Positions 1,689 to 54,645 of a stretch of 64,000 nt of DNA are shown in pieces. Position numbers and translations under genes: made by a program. The notes beneath the pieces are model-generated. The model was given only the letters and a program-made list of their open reading frames with translations, made no database searches and was not told where the DNA came from. Every line of letters starts with the position of its first letter. Position 1 is the first letter of the stretch. This DNA is from Pirellulales bacterium. Lineage in GTDB: Bacteria > Planctomycetota > Planctomycetia > Pirellulales > S012-138. The stretch lies in assembly GCA_028066245.1 (NCBI GenBank), contig JALCBR010000008.1:10771-74770 (forward strand). The letters are read 5' to 3'.

Positions 1689-2377
1689 GTCATGGCAATG
1701 GTTCACAATAGGCCGCCGAGCCTGCAAGTCGTGTTAAGAATAGATTTTCGGGCGGGCGGGACTGGATGGGACATTGCCCTGACCGGTGGTTTCCTGGCGA
1801 CTCAGAGTGGAATTTCCCAATCGTGCCATCGCGATTTGCTCGTCAGGCCGGCTTCACTCCTGGACCTGGTTCAGACTGAGAAATAGCTCTGCATTTCTTG
1901 CCGTGGCGATTCACGAGCGGTAACCGTGCGAAAAAGACGTGATCACGGCGCTTCGCAGCGGTGCAACGCCATCGAGTTCTACCGAATTGGCGTCGCGAAT
2001 CACCAAGCCGAGCAAGGGTTTTCCAGCCGAGCGCATGCGCGAGGGTTTCGCGCGACGGTGTCGTGAAATCAACAGGAAGAAAACCCACACCCGGCGCGAG
2101 ATCAGTGTGGCTGCATCCTTGGCCGCTGGGTGACCCGTCCGTGGCGCATTCCCGATCTGGGGTGACACGCAGAGGGGACAATCGGGGCTGCAAGCCTCGT
2201 CGCCGGGCATGGTGCGAACACGATCAGCCAGAATGGTTCTGGCCAAGATATTCGCAGGTCTTCCTCCGTGATTCGTGGGGGAGATGGCGAATCCGCTAGG
2301 GGGTCCGCCATGATGTCTCTGTTTGGTGTTCGTTAGTTCGCGCGTGTTTGCCGTTGCTCTACGCCCATCGCGGTGAA

Positions 2378-2896
2378 TCAATCAACAAGCCCGTCAAACA
2401 GTTTGCGGAACCGTGGCATGCGACGGTTGAGGTAATCAAGCCATGCGGCGGGTCGCCAGACTTCAACGCACACTGCGGCACCGACGATCATGCTCTCTTC
2501 GCCGGGTTCAATTTGCAGGAACTCGCGAAAACCCTCCGGGATTAACAATCGTCCGCGTTCGGAAACCTTCACGTCGCGATGCCGCGTGGAAAGCAGCCGT
2601 CCAATTTGCTGCACTTCATTCAAGCGGCCTTCCAAGCGTCCCGCCTGGACTTTTCCTTGAAGAACCCTGACATCTGCGTCCATCTGCTGATGCCACACGG
2701 TCGCATTCCATAAACTCAAACAGCCTGGGCGTTCTTTCGCCAGGATTGCTTGCCCAGCTTGCAAATTCAGCGGTTCCAGCAGTTCAGCGGGAATCCCGAC
2801 ACGAAACCGATCGTCGAACGATCGTCGAAACTCGCCAAAGAGCAATTCAGATTCCATGGGACGTGGGCAGTTCTCTGCGTCCGCTAGCGACTCCAT
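2378..2896 (-). CDS. mraZ: MraZ-family (AbrB/SpoVT-like) transcriptional regulator
   Basis: Two tandem half-domains carry MraZ-type motifs: FGEFRRSFDDRFRVGIPAEL and VKVSERGRLLIPEGFREFL. VEVWRPAAW resembles E. coli FELWDETTW. The likely true start is Met14 (2857). Confidence 0.7.
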   Translation of the reverse strand: MESLADAENCPRPMESELLFGEFRRSFDDRFRVGIPAELLEPLNLQAGQAILAKERPGCLSLWNATVWHQQMDADVRVLQGKVQAGRLEGRLNEVQQIGRLLSTRHRDVKVSERGRLLIPEGFREFLQIEPGEESMIVGAAVCVEVWRPAAWLDYLNRRMPRFRKLFDGLVD

Positions 2897-2945
2897 TCTC
2901 TAATTGGGTTGTTTTCCCCATATCCATGCATTGATTCATGAATAA

Positions 2946-2960
2946 TGGGACGAATTCCCA
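2946..2960. promoter_or_regulatory. inverted repeat TGGGA-N5-TCCCA in the mraZ-like / KAS divergent promoter region
   Basis: Perfect 5-5-5 inverted repeat in an AT-rich spacer. The 10-bp palindrome ATTCATGAAT lies at 2934-2943. TGGG-containing repeats are the known E. coli MraZ operator type. Function here is inferred. Confidence 0.3.
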
Positions 2961-3229
2961 AGAATCTAACGGTTCACTCTAGCATTGCAAGCACATTCTT
3001 AGTGCTTTTCTTTACGTGGGTCCACAAACGTCGGCGGTCTATCAGCCTTGCCTAAGCTTTCTTGATTGGAATGCGGAAAGGCGCGTATATTCTCGTCCCG
3101 TCTGTGTCAGCGAGCCCGGCGGAATCAAAATCCGCCGTTTCTGACCGCAACGGCGCCAATGTTGAAACAGCACAACGGTCGGCTCATGACGGCCAACTCC
3201 CCCCACCAGCCATCCCGTCGGAACCCGGC

Positions 3230-4504
3230 ATGACGAGATTCGCCATCGGGCATAAGACAGAGTTTGAACCGGTCGTCATCACCGGCATCGGGTTGGTGAC
3301 ATCAACTGGTTTGGATCGAGAGACGGCTTGGCAGGCGATCAAAGATGGCCGATCAGGTGTGCAACGGCTGCGCGGAGTGCCTGGAATTCCGGACGATTTC
3401 ATTCTGGGCGCAACAGTTGATGTGCCGACGGACTTTCCCGGCCAGCGCAAGGAGTTTCCCCTCGCGCGTAGGGCCGCGGAGGAAGCGATTACCGATGCTG
3501 GGATCGATCTGGCCAACTCTGATCGAGATCGATTCGGCTGCTCCATCAGTGGCGTGATGGGCGATACCTCGTATGTCAACCAAGTCTGTGGGCGAACTGA
3601 TCTGTTGCCTGATCCGCACATCAAGTGGTGGGAGCAGTGGTTGCCCAATTCCTGCTGTTGGAGCGTCGCCCAGCATTTTGGTTTCAACGGTCCACGAACC
3701 AGCCATAGCGTGGCCTGCGCAAGTGGACTCGTCGATGCGTTGGCCGCCGTGCGAAATATCCAGGACGGGCAGTGCGATGTGGCACTGACCGGGAGTTCTT
3801 TCGCCATTGATTCTCTGTTTGCTTCCGGCTTTCAGAAGATGCGTGTGCTGGCGGAACACGAGGACCCCGCCCAAGCGTCGCGTCCTTTCGACGCAGAACG
3901 AAGTGGATTTGTGATGGGCGAAGGTGCGGCGATGTTCATTGTCGAACGTCTCTCACATGCGGTCGCGCGCGGCGCCAAGATCTACTCGGAGATCGCTGCC
4001 GCTAAGATGCAGGGCGATGCGCATCATGTGACCGGGCTCGATCAAAACTCCGAGAGTTTGTCCTACCTGATCTCTTCAACGTTGCGGCAAGCGCGGCTGA
4101 GGCCGGCTGATATCGGCTATATCAACGCGCATGGGACGGGGACGCAACAGAATGATGCCGTGGAAACGCGGGCGATCCGTGACGCTCTGGGGACTGCGGC
4201 CAACCAGGTTTGCGTTAGCTCGACCAAATCCATGATCGGTCACCTTGTTTGTGCTGCCGGGAGTGTCGAGCTAGCCATTACGGCGCTGGCTTTGCGGGAT
4301 GGCTTTTTCCCTCCGACCATCAATTTGACGTCGCCAGACCCTGCGTGCGATCTTGATTATTTACCGTTGGTTGGTCGTCGGGGTGCGTACGAGCACGCGC
4401 TGAAGATCTCCGTTGCTTTCGGCGGACATCTGGTTGCTTTCGCACTGCGGCGCTGGGACGAGGCAGACTCCGGCTTTTTGGTGTCGGATGTTTCCGCGGC
4501 CTGA
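3230..4504 (+). CDS. beta-ketoacyl-ACP synthase I/II family (KAS, Cys-His-His type)
   Basis: VVITGIGLVTSTG is the N-terminal motif. The active-site Cys is in HSVACASG and the His residues are in NAHGTGT and KSMIGHLVCAAG. The ORF is open from 3062, but Met57 (3230) gives a canonical N-terminus. Confidence 0.8.
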   Translation: MTRFAIGHKTEFEPVVITGIGLVTSTGLDRETAWQAIKDGRSGVQRLRGVPGIPDDFILGATVDVPTDFPGQRKEFPLARRAAEEAITDAGIDLANSDRDRFGCSISGVMGDTSYVNQVCGRTDLLPDPHIKWWEQWLPNSCCWSVAQHFGFNGPRTSHSVACASGLVDALAAVRNIQDGQCDVALTGSSFAIDSLFASGFQKMRVLAEHEDPAQASRPFDAERSGFVMGEGAAMFIVERLSHAVARGAKIYSEIAAAKMQGDAHHVTGLDQNSESLSYLISSTLRQARLRPADIGYINAHGTGTQQNDAVETRAIRDALGTAANQVCVSSTKSMIGHLVCAAGSVELAITALALRDGFFPPTINLTSPDPACDLDYLPLVGRRGAYEHALKISVAFGGHLVAFALRRWDEADSGFLVSDVSAA

Positions 4505-6797: not shown

Positions 6798-7825
6798 TGA
6801 ACTGGCTAGGTAACGGATGGATTCGATGTCAGCTGGGGGGATTCATTGTGTTGTGCTTGCCAATGCTGGCGGCCGCGCAGGATGAACCTGATCGGGATAA
6901 TGAACTGAGCGAGGATTTGCGCGTAATGTCAGCGCTGGTCGATGAGACCGTTCTCGGTTTCTACCAGAAATTGGGCGCCGCGAATTGCATGGCCTGCCAT
7001 GCAGGCAACTTCAACGCCACTGAACTGTGGCGTTCGCAGACCGTTTGGTCGGCGAATGGGCAATTTCACGACGCGCTGTCCCAGTGGCATTTCGGCGCCG
7101 CGCCGACAAAGTCAAAGTCGACGTATATCCCTGGCATGGGCGCTGTGGTTCAATTGACCGCGCCGGATTTTCCTGATGCTGCGAACGTCAACCTGCAGGC
7201 GGATGTGCATGCAGAGAATCTTTCTCGCTGGGAAAAGATGCGACGGCAACTGGCGGGGGAGAGGACTGATAAAGTTGTTGATCTCTCTGTTGAGCTCTCG
7301 GTTGATATCACCTCCGTGCACTTCTCCCGTAACGATTTGGTTGACGAACTAGCCGAACTCTTGGCCGAAAGCGGACATAATTTCCGGCACCTTGCTGCTG
7401 AGGAGCGGATCGCGGTTTCCGTGACCTTCGAAAAAGGCGCCTATGATTGGCATCATTGGGGGGACGGGACCAAGCCTGCGAGTAACGTTTGGGGGGCTGC
7501 CAATATCTTTTATGGCACGGGCGAGTCCGCCGCTGCAAGTGGTAGCGAAGGCGCGGCCGGTCAAGGGGCTGTTGCCGGCGGCGAGGGGAGCTCAAGCGCT
7601 CAAGCCAGTGGAGACGACGTCCCGTTCTTGAGCAATGTCCCGCTCTTGGGCGAGCTGTTCCGAGGAGGCAAGCGGCCGTTGCCGGTCCGGCTGATCGTTT
7701 CCGCGACCAAAGCTCAGGTTGATGCCGTGGCTTCCGGGACCCTCTCCGCAGAAGATTTCCGCAAGCAGGTGAACGTGCATCTCATCGACCCAAAAGCTAA
7801 GCTGAACACGAACTGGTCGCCGTGA
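6794..7825 (+). CDS. secreted protein with one CXXCH motif and a secretin-like C-terminal motif
   Basis: The start forms an ATGA overlap with the anti-sigma stop. The signal peptide is FIVLCLPMLAAAQD. It contains CMACH. The C-terminal VPFLSNVPLLGELFRGG...RLIVSAT resembles the vPlLgdiPllGxLF...lifitP end of secretin domains. Confidence 0.6.
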   Translation: MMNWLGNGWIRCQLGGFIVLCLPMLAAAQDEPDRDNELSEDLRVMSALVDETVLGFYQKLGAANCMACHAGNFNATELWRSQTVWSANGQFHDALSQWHFGAAPTKSKSTYIPGMGAVVQLTAPDFPDAANVNLQADVHAENLSRWEKMRRQLAGERTDKVVDLSVELSVDITSVHFSRNDLVDELAELLAESGHNFRHLAAEERIAVSVTFEKGAYDWHHWGDGTKPASNVWGAANIFYGTGESAAASGSEGAAGQGAVAGGEGSSSAQASGDDVPFLSNVPLLGELFRGGKRPLPVRLIVSATKAQVDAVASGTLSAEDFRKQVNVHLIDPKAKLNTNWSP

Positions 7826-49022: not shown

Positions 49023-49174
49023 CGATGGTTGAAATGCCACCGTGACGTTTCGGCCTTGAGCCTCGTACGAGAGTGGAACTTTGTTCCCAAATCACAGCGA
49101 CTTTTAACACGTTGATGCTGCGCGAAAAAAACGCGGCCGCTCAAACCTCTCGGGCTCGATTGAATAAAAATACA

Positions 49175-49206
49175 GGCCGACGGAGCATTCGAGTGCTTCG
49201 TCGGCC
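49175..49206 (-). terminator. rho-independent terminator of yidC
   Basis: 13-bp stem GGCCGACGGAGCA / TGCTTCGTCGGCC (one G-U pair) with a 6-nt loop. The minus-strand 3' flank is UGUAUUUUUAUU. Confidence 0.65.
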
Positions 49207-49293
49207 GGGTGTTCGCATCCTGTATTAGCGACGCAGCTTGGCGAGAGAGTGAGTCTTGCTCGACTTGTAAAGAGTCGCAGCCGTTCCAAAGAC

Positions 49294-51915
49294 TTATGGT
49301 TTCTTCTTCCTCTCGTTTCTCTTCTTGTCAGGCTTTTGGGGTGACCCGTTGCCGCTACTGGCAGCCATCTTGCGCCGCTCCCGCGGCGAGGGGCCGGCGT
49401 CTGCCTCCGTGATGGCCGTCTGTTGATCCTTGTTGGGCTTGGGGAGGAACTTTCGCTCCGCAATGCCCCATACGCTTGAAGCGATAAAATACAAACACAA
49501 CCCAGCAGGAACTTTGAAGAACATGAACGCAAAAAAGACCATCATGTACTTCATCAACTTCTGCTGCATTCTCTGTTGATCATCCATCGGTGGCGGCATG
49601 AACATCTTTTGTTGCATGATGAACAAGCCGATGGTCACGATGGGCAGAATGTTGAAATACGGCCCTAGGAATCCGGTGTTTGAAACCAAGAAATCCGGCA
49701 GGAAGGCCCAATCACCCCAGTAGAAAAGCATGTCCGGGGCGGCTAGGTTATCGCACCAAGCTGTGAAGCCGGGAATCAACGGCGCCTGGCGGAGCTCAAC
49801 GTCCAGCATCAACGCGCGATAGAGACCAATGAAAATGGGCAACTGCAAGAACAGGATCAAACATCCACCTAGCGGATGATAGTTGTGCTTGCGGAACAAC
49901 TCTTGAGTCGCCCGCATTTTCTCTTGCGGATTGTTCTTGTACTTTTCATTCAGGCGGCGGATCTCCGGCTGCAGTGCCTGCATCTTTTGCGCGCCAAGAG
50001 CGTTCTTACGACTGAGCGGGAACATCGCTCCGCGGACGATGACTGTCAGAATCAGGATCGCCAAGCCGTAGTTCGGAATGACTCCATAGATGAAGTGCAA
50101 CACGGATTGCAGCACCTTGGCGAACACGCCCCAGATCGGCCACCCATAGTAAACGAGCTCGCTGAGTTGATAATCCGGCTCGGCCAGCAAATCCGTTGAC
50201 TTCGGACCCACGAACAGGCGAAACGAACGACTGATCGTCTTTTCTTCACGTCCCAGCACAACCGGGATACTCAACAATCGGAATGAAGTGTTGGTCAGCC
50301 GAGATTCCTTGGCAGTCCGTGGAGCTCCCACGCGTACCGCTTGGGCGCGTTGAAACCAAAGAGCCGCGTTTTCACCTTCGCCACGGATTGGAATCAAACT
50401 ACTGGCGAAATATCGTGAATCGCTGGAGATAGATTTCAACGGAACTTCACCGCCTGCCCTCGGGAGTTCGTCAAACTTCGCGATCCTTGACGCGCCGATC
50501 AGTGCCGGATCGGCCCCTTCAAACTCGAACATCACATCGCGAGCACCAATGCCTTCAAACCAACCTCGCGCCAGCTTGCTGCTGTACCACCACCCCTCGT
50601 CCGGCAGGCCGTTGAATCCATCAATCTGATAGACCACTTCGCGTTTGACGCCGAGGTTTTCAATCTCCAGATCCATGGTCAGATGGAAACCAGGCGGGAG
50701 ATCTTTGTTATTGTGCTCTTCCGCCAACTCAGATTTCCTGGCCAGGGTGAACCGCTTGGTGTAGCGGAGTTTCCACCGCGGGTCCGTGTATTCGAACTCG
50801 ACGACGTTGTCCTGCCCCTCCGGTCGCTTCACGTTCCACGTGACGTCATGCAGGTTCATCTCGGGAATTTCCGCCGGCAAGCGGACCAGCGCGGTTCGCA
50901 AAGACTTGCCCGTTTCAAAGTTAGCTCTCGGCTCCGCTTCGAAATTCATCCGCAGCCACGCGCCGGTGGGAACTTGTGCCAGGTAATTCTTAAGTTCTCC
51001 GAGATTGGTGAACTCCACCCCATCAACGCTCTTGATCAAGTTTCCCTGCCGTAACCCGGCCACATACATGGGATGTGTCGTGGGAAGATCGCCGACGGTG
51101 ATCCCACCATTTCCACTGAGAAAACGGGTCAGGTCCGAGGCCGCGGGGATTTCGCCATCGCCGTTGTTATTATCTCCTTCAAGTTGTCGCACTGATTGCA
51201 GCGTCAACCGCATGGAAAGAGGGTCTTGAAATACGCTCCCGGGCGCTGTGTTGGGCGCGACAATACTCAGCGGCATCGCCGCTAGCGTCACATCGCGTTG
51301 GACTTGATTTCCACTGCTGTCCGTAATCTCCAATGTCCATTGTGCGCCGACGCGCGCTTGCTCACCGTTGAGCAAAGTTTCCCAATCAAGGACGGACGCA
51401 ACAGGAATCGACTCGCCATTTACTGGAGTGATCGAGGTGACAATGTCGCCCACTTGGACGCCGGCTGCCTGAGCGGGTGTGCCCTCGCCGACTGCTGTGA
51501 CCTCTACTCCCTCCACGCCCGCGGAGCCCATCGGATCGCGCGGAGCAAGATGCCCCAGGTATCCTTGTCGTTCCCGTCGGGCAATGAGATCTTGAAATCG
51601 AGGATTGTTGAGTTCGATCCGCTCGATTGTTCCGCCACGATTGTTGGCCGTGACCAACATGACGTAGTCACTGTCCGGACTGAGCGAACCCAGCGTGACG
51701 CGTTGGGGGGCGACGGCCGGAACGCTGACCGGCGGCGCAATCAACGGATGCGGATCTTTCTCGCCACTGTCTTTGTCGCCATCTTGTTGATTGAGAGCGG
51801 CGTCTTCGCGATCGACTTGATTGCCGGCGTTCCGGTTAACCTTTTGAGACATCCAGATGCTGCACAGCAGGATCAGCATCGAAAGGCTGACAAATGTCAG
51901 GATTTTTCTAGCCAT
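49294..51915 (-). CDS. yidC: membrane protein insertase YidC, long form with PDZ-like insertions
   Basis: The C-terminal core is PLSRKNALGAQKMQALQPEIRRLNEKYKNNPQEKMRATQELFRKHNYHPLGGCLILFLQLPIFIGLY. The probable start MARKILTFVSLSMLILL is at 51915; the ORF is open to 52014. Confidence 0.88.
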   Translation of the reverse strand: MARKILTFVSLSMLILLCSIWMSQKVNRNAGNQVDREDAALNQQDGDKDSGEKDPHPLIAPPVSVPAVAPQRVTLGSLSPDSDYVMLVTANNRGGTIERIELNNPRFQDLIARRERQGYLGHLAPRDPMGSAGVEGVEVTAVGEGTPAQAAGVQVGDIVTSITPVNGESIPVASVLDWETLLNGEQARVGAQWTLEITDSSGNQVQRDVTLAAMPLSIVAPNTAPGSVFQDPLSMRLTLQSVRQLEGDNNNGDGEIPAASDLTRFLSGNGGITVGDLPTTHPMYVAGLRQGNLIKSVDGVEFTNLGELKNYLAQVPTGAWLRMNFEAEPRANFETGKSLRTALVRLPAEIPEMNLHDVTWNVKRPEGQDNVVEFEYTDPRWKLRYTKRFTLARKSELAEEHNNKDLPPGFHLTMDLEIENLGVKREVVYQIDGFNGLPDEGWWYSSKLARGWFEGIGARDVMFEFEGADPALIGASRIAKFDELPRAGGEVPLKSISSDSRYFASSLIPIRGEGENAALWFQRAQAVRVGAPRTAKESRLTNTSFRLLSIPVVLGREEKTISRSFRLFVGPKSTDLLAEPDYQLSELVYYGWPIWGVFAKVLQSVLHFIYGVIPNYGLAILILTVIVRGAMFPLSRKNALGAQKMQALQPEIRRLNEKYKNNPQEKMRATQELFRKHNYHPLGGCLILFLQLPIFIGLYRALMLDVELRQAPLIPGFTAWCDNLAAPDMLFYWGDWAFLPDFLVSNTGFLGPYFNILPIVTIGLFIMQQKMFMPPPMDDQQRMQQKLMKYMMVFFAFMFFKVPAGLCLYFIASSVWGIAERKFLPKPNKDQQTAITEADAGPSPRERRKMAASSGNGSPQKPDKKRNERKKKP

Positions 51916-52186
51916 ACGAAGACTCAGTTCGAATCTGATAAACCGCGTGATATTCCAAACGGGGCGCAAGCTGCGCGAAGACACCCCTTCAACAGAACCA
52001 CCACTGTGCGTCACACCGGCGTTTGCCCAACTTCACCATGTATTCTCGCGGAGCGAGCATTTCTTGCAATGGGACCAGCGAACGCGGCATTTCTCGGAGA
52101 ATGCCAGCCGATGTTTGACCTCACCCCAAAGCCAGACTTGCCGGGCAGACCGATGCTCGGCTTGCAGTGAGCCGGAACGTCAGGGG

Positions 52187-53086
52187 CTATTTCCCGTCTC
52201 GCAGCCTGTCGCCGAGGTTGTTGTCCAATTCTGAAATCTCGTAGATCTTGCGGCGAGTTTCTTCAAAATCGTAGGGAACCCGGCAGAATCGCAACAGTTC
52301 GTCGTCTTCGACAATCACATAGCAGGCTCGGTTATCGCCATCCCGAGGTTGCCCCACAGATCCGACATTGACCATGATCCGCCCTTCGCTGGGTAGTCGG
52401 TACTCATAGGCAGTATCTTCGGGAGCAATGAATTCTGGTTTTTCCGTAAAGACGCCGGGGACATGAGTGTGGCCTTGAAAGCAGAATCGCTGCACCAGGG
52501 CGAAGATCCGTTCGAGCTTTCGCGGCATATAAACGTCTTCGGGGAAGACGTACTCATTGAGAGGGTTGCGGGCGGACCCGTGTACGTAAAGGTAAGGCTC
52601 TTCTCGGTGGGTCCGCGGCAATTCGCCAAGAAATTCCCAACGCTGATCTGGTTGATCCCCAAAGCCCAACGGCTTCTCCAACTGCTCGCGGGTCCAGAAG
52701 ATCGCGCGTTCAGCGACGGTGTGAAAACCTTCAGGGTCGAACAGCGCACCTTGGTCATGGTTGCCCAGCAGGCAGATCTGGGAGTGTTTTTGGACCAGGT
52801 CGATACACTCTCGCGGATTTGGCCCATAGCCGACAATATCGCCCAGGCAGTAGACTTCCTTAATGCCCTTGGATTCGATGTCGGCGAGAACCGCTTCGAG
52901 CCCTTCCAGGTTGGAATGGATATCGCTTATCAGGGCTCGTTTCACGAGAGCAGAATCCGGGGATCGGGATAACGAGCTTAGAAACCAGTTCAAAACCTGA
53001 AGGAGATCAGCGGTCACCGCTGAGCTCGCTCTTGGTCCCTCAGGTATTCTGTATCGGTCCGAGGAGACCTCGGCACAACACTTCAA
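52187..53086 (-). CDS. metallophosphoesterase (calcineurin-like, YfcE/ApaH-related)
   Basis: [23 protein letters not shown] and GHTH motifs are present. A GTG at 52945 ([10 protein letters not shown]) is a plausible shorter start. Confidence 0.8.
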
Positions 53087-53119
53087 GAAAAATGCGCGAA
53101 ACCATTGGGAAGTCTAAGT

Positions 53120-53426
53120 AGGGGGATTTTGAGGGTCAAGCCGCTTCGAGCGGAATCCACCGCGAACCCCCGACTTGACCGGAATAGTCTCGCGTCAGGA
53201 CTAACCCAACAGCCAGGTGGAGCTAACTCCTCAAAATATCTTGGCAAGAACGCTATGCGGTGGCCAGACTCAGGGCAGGCTGTTGATTATCAATAGCCTA
53301 CGTGAATCCCAGGGATGGATTCCAAATCATGCACAGGTAGCACAACATGCCGCGATGATTTAGAGCGGTGCGAGATTCACTCTCGCACTTGGCTCGGGGT
53401 TGAAAAACGCCACGATGGCGTTTTTT
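53120..53426 (+). promoter_or_regulatory. candidate structured 5' leader / unclassified riboswitch-like or sRNA element
   Basis: Nested complementarity: 53126-34 pairs with 53229-37, and 53135-40 pairs with 53174-79. Hairpins lie at 53141-53, 53185-203, 53277-99, 53304-22 and 53368-88. A terminator hairpin follows, 40 nt before the ATG at 53466. Confidence 0.35.
53403..53426 (+). terminator. intrinsic terminator/attenuator hairpin
   Basis: Perfect 10-bp stem AAAAACGCCA-cga-TGGCGTTTTT, followed by one more T. No upstream plus-strand CDS exists for it to terminate. Confidence 0.6.
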
Positions 53427-53465
53427 CGCCAGCCTGTTCGAGGTGAACCACAACCGTGATACATC

Positions 53466-53966
53466 ATGAATACAGGTCGCCATTCTCACAGCCCGACGAC
53501 ACGAGATGATGCGGCTCTTGTGGCCGCGTTTGAAAACGGAACCTTGCCACACGAAGATTGGAACCACGAGGCTCATCTGCGCGTGGCATTCTGTTATTTG
53601 TCGCAACATGCCTTTGAAGAAGCCATGGAGCGAATTCGAGCTGGGCTCAAGAATTATCTGAGTGCAAAGGAGATCATCAACACCGCGACGCAGGGCTACC
53701 ACGAGACGATGACCCAGCTCTGGATGCATGTGATTGCCGCATTAATGGCAGGCCATGCTGGGGAACGCACAAAACAATCGCTCCTTCAGAAGAATCCAAC
53801 TGGCTCAGCGGAGTTCATTGAACGGAACGCGTTCCTGTTGGAAAAGTCTTTGTGGAGAATGTTCTATTCTCGCCGGCAGATGGTCTCCATACGTGCTAAA
53901 CAAGAGTTCGTGCCGCCTGACATTACTCCACTTCCCAGTTTCGATGACGCCAAAATTCCACGGTGA
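53466..53966 (+). CDS. hypothetical protein
   Basis: 166-aa ORF with normal composition. It is co-directional with kynB and 16 nt upstream of it. I recognise no family. Confidence 0.5.
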   Translation: MNTGRHSHSPTTRDDAALVAAFENGTLPHEDWNHEAHLRVAFCYLSQHAFEEAMERIRAGLKNYLSAKEIINTATQGYHETMTQLWMHVIAALMAGHAGERTKQSLLQKNPTGSAEFIERNAFLLEKSLWRMFYSRRQMVSIRAKQEFVPPDITPLPSFDDAKIPR

Positions 53967-53982
53967 GCAGGAAGCTCATTGT

Positions 53983-54645
53983 GTGGATACAGATTTGCCA
54001 ACCGTTGTATCACTGAGGTCCGATCGCTTGAGAATCTACGACATTACGCCACCCATCACTCCGCAGTTGAAAGTCTGGCCAGGCGATACACCGCCCGAAC
54101 GGCAAGTCCGGCTGGACATGGCGCAAGGCGACAATATCACGCTTTCGACGTTGCGTACGACGGTGCATGCAGGCGCGCACGCCGACGCGCCTAGCCACTA
54201 CGGAGTTGACGCTGCGAGCATCGAGAATTGTCCACTGGAAACCTACCTTGGCCCTTGTCAGGTAGTGAGGATCGAAGCGCCCCGCAAGACTCGCATTACT
54301 CCACAAATGATTGAGGATGAGATTCACGCGCCGCGCGTGTTGCTGAGCACGGGCACGTTTCCCAACTCGGAAGAGCTCAGCACGGATTTCGCGGCGATCT
54401 CACCGGAGTTGGTTAACTCGTTTGCGGATGCGGGTGTCGTGCTGATTGGCATCGATACGCCCAGCGTCGACTTGTTCGATTCCAAAGAACTGCCCGCCCA
54501 CAAGGCGTTTCTTGCTCGAGGCATCTTGATCTTGGAAGGACTCAGGCTTGCTGATGTTCCGCCGGGTACTTATGAATTGATCGCCTTGCCGCTGCCGCTT
54601 GTTGGGTTTGATGGCAGTCCTGTCCGCGCCGTTCTTCGCGGCTAG
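53983..54645 (+). CDS. kynB: kynurenine formamidase / cyclase-family arylformamidase
   Basis: YDITPPITPQLKVWPGDTP, HAGAHADAPSHY, IGIDTPSVD and YELIALPLPLVGFDGSPVRAVLR closely parallel proteobacterial KynB. The GTG at 53983 is preceded by AGGAAG; the ORF is open from 53755. Confidence 0.85.
   Translation: MDTDLPTVVSLRSDRLRIYDITPPITPQLKVWPGDTPPERQVRLDMAQGDNITLSTLRTTVHAGAHADAPSHYGVDAASIENCPLETYLGPCQVVRIEAPRKTRITPQMIEDEIHAPRVLLSTGTFPNSEELSTDFAAISPELVNSFADAGVVLIGIDTPSVDLFDSKELPAHKAFLARGILILEGLRLADVPPGTYELIALPLPLVGFDGSPVRAVLRG

Follow-up and report, generated by a model that had tools for sequence, protein, structure and literature searches.

A predicted minus-strand promoter beside a lineage-specific hairpin block in a divergent intergenic region of an uncultured Pirellulales bacterium

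The window, a 64,000-nt stretch of DNA, was taken from the MAG of an uncultured member of the Pirellulales. Inside it, a 520-nt spacer (52946-53465) separates two divergent transcription units and contains the interval under study, 53120-53465 (Table 1). The unit on the minus strand comprises a metallophosphoesterase gene. On the plus strand, the spacer is followed by a pair of genes whose ORFs overlap by 23 nt. No match was found in Pfam or NCBIfam for the 166-aa protein encoded by the first gene of this pair; it has more than 1,100 homologs, with orthologs reaching 56-62% identity. The second gene was named kynB in the initial annotation. Its product is described here as arylformamidase-like (KynB-like); it scores 193.8 bits against TIGR03035, under the cut-off of 223.

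Based on the ORF list and on inspection of the sequence, no CDS is present on the plus strand upstream of the hairpins, as had been reported before. No ATG occurs from the T-run of the terminator-like hairpin up to position 53466, and ARAGORN detected no tRNA or tmRNA. All complementarities described in the initial annotation were recovered at their positions, both in the sequence and by an inverted-repeat scan. A terminator-like hairpin does lie 40 nt 5' of the ORF, and it is preceded by real, non-random hairpins. The flagged interval is best explained as two unrelated elements lying next to each other, a predicted minus-strand promoter and a lineage-specific block of hairpins.

Table 1. Features in and around the divergent spacer (positions are those of the window)
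Feature	Position	Strand	Remarks
Metallophosphoesterase gene	GTG start 52945	-	Pfam Metallophos/Metallophos_2
Putative 5' UTR of the metallophosphoesterase mRNA, ~159 nt	52946-53104	-	From the promoter-to-GTG distance; start site inferred
Predicted sigma-70-type promoter TTGACC-N17-TAGACT	53111-53139	-	Best consensus-scan match in the region
Hairpin CCGCT-TCG-AGCGG	53141-53153	not assigned	Adjoins the -35 box
Weakly conserved spacer, not significantly structured	53157-53240	+	Contains the TAGTC/GACTA hairpin and the 3' arm of the "outer helix"
Candidate promoter TTGGCA-N18-CAGACT	53241-53270	+	Relaxed consensus scan; at the left edge of the block missing in L085
Hairpin 1, AGGCTGTTGA-TTA-TCAATAGCCT	53277-53299	+	10 bp; its one G-U pair cannot form on the minus strand
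Hairpin 2, GAATCC-N7-GGATTC	53304-53322	+	6 bp
Hairpin 3, AAATCATGC.../...GCGATGATTT	~53324-53361	+	9 bp plus an inner 4-bp GGUA/UGCC with one U-G; inverted repeat I4
Hairpin 4, core GTGCGAGA-TTCAC-TCTCGCAC (53368-53388, 8 bp)	~53363-53394	+	From the fold; inverted repeat I7, 53368-75/53381-88
Intrinsic-terminator-like hairpin AAAAACGCCA-CGA-TGGCGTTTTT plus one T	53403-53426	+	Inverted repeat I1, 53403-12/53416-25
166-aa ORF, function not assigned by family search	53466-53966	+	First gene of the downstream pair
Arylformamidase-like (KynB-like) cyclase-family gene	53944-54645	+	PF04199 at 1e-17; gene call

The stability of the folds was compared with that of shuffled sequences (n = 200), for each sub-region and on each strand. 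The full interval 53100-53430 folds better than its shuffles, with z-values of -4.31 and -4.25 on the two strands. Splitting it into halves locates this structure signal in 53271-53430. On the plus strand, this right half has an MFE of -67.0 kcal/mol, against a shuffle mean of -45.2 kcal/mol (z = -5.37), and none of the 200 shuffles is as stable. In a GC-regressed scan of the whole 64 kb (1,600 windows of 160 nt), it would rank first at about -3.4 SD, with others reaching -3.2. Its minus strand, with an MFE of -63.6 kcal/mol (z = -5.70), folds equally well, so that structure alone does not fix the strand. The left half, 53120-53270, has an MFE of -45.6 kcal/mol, and its shuffles average -45.45 kcal/mol (z = -0.03); 94 of the 200 shuffles are at least as stable. 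Similar folding energies in shuffled sequences, a control proposed in the initial annotation, are thus obtained for the left half only. A branched domain of ~110 nt had been described there (53126-53237) and read as an aptamer. This "aptamer" is not a structured RNA; its folding is at chance level and it overlaps a conserved promoter on the opposite strand.

This promoter is predicted to serve the divergent metallophosphoesterase gene. Its -35 box (TTGACC, 53139->53134) and its -10 box (TAGACT, 53116->53111) are separated by a spacer of 17 nt and match the TTGACA/TATAAT consensus at nine of 12 positions. Eighty loci with phosphoesterase orthologs from across the Planctomycetota were compared, together with the closest metagenomic relatives. 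Of 86 Planctomycetota loci, ~55 carry a TTGAC-N17-19-TAnAnT motif, mostly TTGACC ... TA(G/C/A)ACT, 5' of the orthologous gene; these loci come from Pirellulales, Planctomycetaceae, Thermoguttaceae and Gemmataceae. The motif is positioned 89-400 nt before the conserved GTGAA(A/G)CG start. In a three-way alignment of the window with loci L085 and L001, whose phosphoesterases are 84% and 85% identical to that of the window, the promoter block GGAAGTCTAA..AGGG....GGGTCAAGCCG is invariant, and conservation is confined to this block and to the last ~38 nt before the start codon. The 5' UTRs of most relatives measure 60-190 nt, and two are longer. The element resembles sigma-70-type promoters (TTGACA-N17-TATAAT) in its TTGACC-N17-TAGACT arrangement and in its conservation upstream of orthologs across the phylum. 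It differs in having TAnACT instead of TATAAT as its -10 box.

Given that the TTGACC-N17-TAGACT block is conserved on the minus strand, the ATTTTGAGG arm is explained as the spacer of this promoter, while GTCAAG represents its -35 box as seen on the opposite strand. The inverted-repeat scan lists I2 (53126-34/53229-37) and I3 (53134-43/53171-80) in this region. The outer ATTTTGAGG/CCTCAAAAT helix is not used in the plus-strand MFE structure, and both this "outer helix" and the GTCAAG/CTTGAC pairing are coincidental. For the small hairpin next to the -35 box, L001 has CCGG-ATCG-CCGG at the same place, meaning that the hairpin is kept with a different sequence; its counterpart in L085 is weak. 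Further to the right, the spacer 53157-53240 aligns only loosely with L085.

The right half is of a different nature. It contains five local, consecutive hairpins with loops of 3-8 nt, no two of which are related. Hairpin 2 is not formed in every fold, as its 5' arm sometimes pairs with GGGGTT (53396-53401) instead. The core of hairpin 4 is lengthened by pairs of the GAGCG/GCUC type. The last hairpin, written with its T-run as AAAAACGCCA-CGA-TGGCGTTTTTT (53403-53426), has the appearance of an intrinsic terminator. Its stem is a perfect 10-bp helix with four G-C pairs out of ten, a CGCC/GGCG core, a 3-nt loop and a T6 run that is partly paired with an A5 run. The predicted energy is -10.7 kcal/mol for the hairpin alone and -18.0 kcal/mol with the flanking pairs. 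Pair probabilities lie between 0.92 and 0.996, with 0.65 for the A-U pair closing the loop. No antiterminator was found by folding: when the 3' arm of the terminator is blocked or left untranscribed, the 5' arm stays essentially unpaired and 11-12 kcal/mol are lost without compensation.

Conservation of the right half was examined in the closest relatives. The divergent arrangement is kept in L085, where the phosphoesterase gene faces a 187-aa ortholog (56% identity) followed by the cyclase gene. The spacer of L085 is 330 nt long, compared to 520 nt in the window, and it is unstructured (z = +0.11) and without terminator. Loose homology between the two spacers ends at ~53240, leaving ~205 extra nt (53241-53446) in the window before the ATG. 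In L083, 91 nt of sequence could be inspected ahead of the hypothetical/cyclase pair (62% identity), and they contain no terminator. The L001 organism has its pair (L124) 35 nt behind an ECF sigma-factor gene, and a rhomboid-family gene is found upstream of its phosphoesterase gene. The upstream spacers of the pair thus measure ~145 nt in L085 (counted from the -35 box of the phosphoesterase gene up to the ATG), 91 nt or more in L083 and 35 nt in L124. Both the 53241-53446 block and any upstream terminator are absent from all three of these orthologous hypothetical/arylformamidase-like operons. Based on these alignments, the ~205-nt block appears to be lineage-specific. No relatives above 85% identity for the phosphoesterase, or above 62% for the 166-aa protein, were found among 5.8 billion proteins. 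Even the closest relatives are only 84-85% identical in this highly conserved phosphoesterase, so that the genomes compared are evolutionarily far apart. The helices are not kept in these relatives, which is the outcome that the initial annotation itself had named as speaking against its proposal.

Homologs of the block were searched for in several ways. Rfam 15, whose use had been suggested in the initial annotation, gave no match to any curated RNA family: over the 64 kb nothing reached the gathering threshold, and up to E = 10 only three sub-threshold chance matches appeared. With nhmmer, run against 80 and then 127 loci, only promoter and UTR homology was detected (52948-53169 aligned to the closest relative). 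The covariance model R1, built from the hairpin stack as a single sequence, recovered no site in the window other than its own, and no match in 87 related loci (645 kb) had an E-value under 0.4. The exact sequence of hairpin 4 has no match in the JGI metagenomes, and the 31 matches to the arms of hairpin 1 are all without flank similarity. Three scans of viral contigs returned chance matches or none, BLAST of the spacer against plasmids returned nothing, and BLAST inside the 64-kb window revealed no second copy of the block. A literature search on sRNAs of Planctomycetes gave nothing relevant. As no homologs were found in any search, covariation cannot support any of the helices.

One similarity inside the window was considered as a related copy. 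By nhmmer (E = 1e-3), 53346-53425 resembles 49104->49030, a segment of the intergenic region that follows yidC. The relation is unproven and cannot be told apart from chance: an equal Smith-Waterman score is obtained in a coding region, hairpin 4 is lost, and the covariance model misses the site.

The initial annotation proposed a riboswitch or attenuator, perhaps responding to a tryptophan/kynurenine metabolite. Some features of the locus do invite a metabolite-sensing riboswitch or regulated attenuator controlling the hypothetical/arylformamidase-like operon: a structured RNA with an intrinsic terminator lies 40 nt before the first ORF, no promoter-like site separates the two, and the downstream gene resembles that of a kynurenine formamidase. 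The proposal fails every test that was run, on aptamer, operon association, antiterminator and family. As far as is known, riboswitch classes have been defined from aptamers that many genomes share in conserved form. The likeness of the present locus to transcription-attenuation riboswitches of the TPP, SAM and FMN classes is limited to the succession of structured leader, terminator and ORF. No conserved aptamer is present, the proposed one is no stabler than its shuffles and overlaps the conserved minus-strand promoter, and a mutually exclusive antiterminator is absent. The element is not tied to the operon in any of the three relatives, it has no match in Rfam, and there are no relatives for covariation analysis. 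Of the standard attenuation layout named in the initial annotation, only this gross outline is present. Nothing suggests ligand sensing, since the hairpins are predicted to be local and nothing in the folds competes with the terminator. Without a conserved or structured aptamer, an alternative structure, an association with the operon or a family match, the riboswitch reading is not supported, and we consider it the least credible of all explanations.

We infer the transcription, strand, ends and function of the block from its sequence. Our preferred explanation, held tentatively and at somewhat less than an even chance, is a lineage-specific plus-strand transcript of ~150 nt, from ~53277 to ~53426. 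It would represent an sRNA in its own right or, alternatively, a leader that terminates constitutively. RNA polymerase would start at ~53277, from the weak promoter-like site TTGGCA-N18-CAGACT. The start predicted from this site coincides with the first base of hairpin 1; its weakness lies in the CAGACT box, which is without the first T, and 32 equally good matches occur in 128 kb (both strands), about one per 4 kb. Transcription would end at ~53426, at the intrinsic terminator, giving a highly structured RNA of ~150 nt. In the case of a leader, only read-through would reach the hypothetical/arylformamidase-like operon. A constitutively terminating leader is considered because the stretch separating the terminator from the ATG at 53466 shows no promoter: a consensus scan and inspection of 53427-53465 gave no credible -35/-10 pair. 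The plus strand is slightly favoured. Two G-U pairs are possible on this strand only, its MFE is 3.4 kcal/mol lower (-67.0 versus -63.6 kcal/mol), and the T-run is T6 against T5. The independent sRNA that had been mentioned as a second option in the initial annotation is thus retained in a narrowed form, confined to 53277-53426.

In its architecture, such a transcript would resemble known sRNAs and 5' leaders that end at intrinsic terminators. It shares with them a stem with a G-C core, a 3-nt loop, six T residues and the lack of an upstream CDS, as well as a divergent intergenic site and several independent stem-loops before the terminator. It differs in that homologs, a recognisable seed or Hfq-type module and an Rfam family are all lacking, and in that its promoter match is weak. 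Five small ORFs in the block show neither a Pfam match nor a coding signal. A leader peptide or coding relic was rejected, the 43-aa ORF having a single Trp and no ribosome-binding context. TRAP-like (G/U)AG repeats were also rejected, as only four or five are seen by eye and their spacing is irregular.

The main rival explanation is that the block is a relic: an orphaned 3' UTR with its terminator, or other inserted DNA left behind when a rearrangement brought the hypothetical/arylformamidase-like pair next to the phosphoesterase gene, acting at most as a passive bidirectional insulator that separates the two divergent units. We regard this as unlikely, though deserving serious weight. Gene order differs among the three closest genomes (rhomboid and ECF sigma-factor genes in L001; the divergent arrangement in L085 and the window), none of the relatives has the block, and the searches found no homolog of it. 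Gene 3' ends in this genome, such as the one downstream of yidC, carry stacks of hairpins followed by T-runs, and both the symmetry of the terminator and the equal stability of the two strands would fit a relic. On the other hand, the hairpins, of 10, 6, 9+4, 8 and 10 bp, are near-perfect and interrupted by nothing more than G-U pairs or bulges, which speaks for a recent origin or for selection. Neither coding remnants nor a significant target-site duplication or terminal repeat were detected; a flanking 7-nt inverted repeat and a 13/17 direct repeat, looked for as signatures of a mobile element, are at chance expectation. Furthermore, no promoter is seen past the terminator, so that the terminator lies inside whatever transcript feeds the operon.

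The equal folding of both strands also bears on an RNA made from the minus strand, which would start in or just upstream of the 5' end of the hypothetical gene (an antisense or divergent transcript, for instance), or on a stop for antisense transcription before the phosphoesterase promoter. The minus strand has its own strong fold (z = -5.70), and the reverse complement of the terminator is a stem with T5, preceded by A6. The nearest minus-strand promoter-like site downstream of 53430 is at 53680->53653, inside the hypothetical gene, and none is close enough; the G-U pairs of two helices turn into A-C mismatches and the T-run is shorter. We judge this explanation improbable. Still a little less probable is that the block belongs to a family of dispersed repeats or mobile elements (REP/BIME-, MITE- or IS200/IS605-end-like), or that it is an array of palindromes which bind proteins and function as DNA. 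The block looks like an insertion in comparison with L085, the palindromes are perfect and equally stable on both strands, and the weak nhmmer similarity connects it with 49104->49030 in another spacer. However, neither BLAST nor the covariance model finds a second copy in the 64 kb, the 49-kb similarity is equalled by the score in a coding region and does not preserve hairpin 4, and exact or arm matches in the JGI metagenomes and viral contigs are at chance level only. The five hairpins are moreover mutually unrelated, and their loops of 3-8 nt are those of RNA hairpins.

To our knowledge, little is known about small and regulatory RNAs in Planctomycetota. If verified, the sRNA or terminated leader proposed here would be a modest addition for the Pirellulales. 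As an orphan in one uncultured MAG, the element can be assigned neither to a family nor, in a testable way, to a pathway; it provides no covariation, and it may have no function. At most, the block is a new, unconserved example of a generic terminator-ended small transcript or leader. Its riboswitch-like look arose from a conserved divergent promoter taken as an RNA helix, combined with an unconserved cluster of hairpins. Layouts of the type "structured leader plus terminator" should be compared with shuffled sequences one sub-region at a time and examined on both strands. A more specific possibility, to which we give little credence, is that the block is a recently acquired, lineage-specific leader whose strong terminator would keep the operon off, read-through being brought about by a trans-acting factor, such as an RNA-binding antiterminator protein or an sRNA, at an upstream hairpin. 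If true, Planctomycetota would have a new antitermination system here, dependent on a protein or an RNA, and not a riboswitch.

The A-tract and T-tract of the terminator are symmetric, and from its sequence it could act on minus-strand transcription too. In this arrangement of A-tract, stem and T-tract, with possible use on either strand, it resembles bidirectional intrinsic terminators. These are usually described between convergent genes, whereas the one found here separates divergent genes, at a place where no coding sequence terminates. It was not listed by a simple terminator scan, apparently due to the stem running into the T-run. This genome uses terminators of this kind at genuine gene ends: similar sites with a hairpin and a T-run are found 30-100 nt past the stops of the ORFs ending at 7825 (plus strand), 29222 (minus strand) and 49294 (minus strand).

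The metallophosphoesterase gene, which diverges from the 166-aa ORF and the arylformamidase-like gene, is preceded by a promoter motif found in about 55 of the 86 loci, belonging to Pirellulales, Planctomycetaceae, Thermoguttaceae and Gemmataceae. In those of the Planctomycetota loci with orthologs of this gene (L001-L080 and L084) that have the motif, it is located about 90-400 nt upstream of locus position 4001. Its spacer contains sub-motifs, including GCTAACTTAGACTGCG and GCAACAATACACTGTG. The start of the gene is also conserved, as GTG-AAA/G-CG. The 5' UTR measures 60-190 nt in most loci and is longer in two; its final ~38 nt are conserved across the three closest genomes.

Features of the window discussed here
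Feature	Window position	Strand	Remark
Predicted metallophosphoesterase promoter	53111-53139	-	CTTGACC-N17/18-TA(G/C/A)ACT; phylum-wide conservation
Predicted metallophosphoesterase 5' UTR	52946-53104	-	
166-aa ORF	53466-53966	+	
Arylformamidase-like cyclase-family gene	53944-54645	+	
YidC homolog	49294-52014	-	

A small hairpin lies immediately upstream of the phosphoesterase -35 box (window 53141-53153). It is retained at about 3801-3812 of L001 with a changed sequence (CCGCT-TCG-AGCGG in the window versus CCGG-ATCG-CCGG in L001). In L001 a rhomboid-family gene of the same orientation ends just before the hairpin.

The 166-aa ORF and the cyclase-family gene, which overlap in the window, look like an uncharacterised two-gene module. 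The cyclase-family gene follows the ORF in all four Pirellulales contexts seen (the window and the loci L083, L085 and L124); P0129 (L127), a more distant homolog of the ORF, has no cyclase-family gene after it. No match to the 166-aa ORF was found in Pfam or NCBIfam, and its homologs number more than 1,100, Verrucomicrobiota among them (e.g., Chthoniobacter and Brevifollis). Against TIGR03035, the window cyclase gene scores 193.8 bits, under the cut-off of 223.

In the closest relative, represented by L124 (region 1833-3678) from the same MAG as L001, an ECF sigma-factor gene precedes the pair by 35 nt, and a Ser/Thr kinase gene is also nearby. This arrangement hints that expression of the pair is sigma-factor-linked in this organism.

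The YidC homolog of the window is unusually long (873-906 aa). It consists of a large N-terminal region with weak or faint matches to PDZ families, followed by the YidC periplasmic and 60KD_IMP domains. The spacer downstream of it (49023-49293) is convergent, separating yidC (minus strand) from a 307-aa ORF (plus strand). In degree of structure, this spacer ranks near the top of all 160-nt windows across the 64 kb; it contains a long stem, GGCCGACG...CGTCGGCC, with a T-run, plus another run of T (T7). Its minus strand (49104 to 49030) shows a borderline similarity (nhmmer E = 1e-3, 78% over 46 nt), indistinguishable from chance, to 53346-53425, part of the lineage-specific hairpin/terminator block upstream of the 166-aa ORF.
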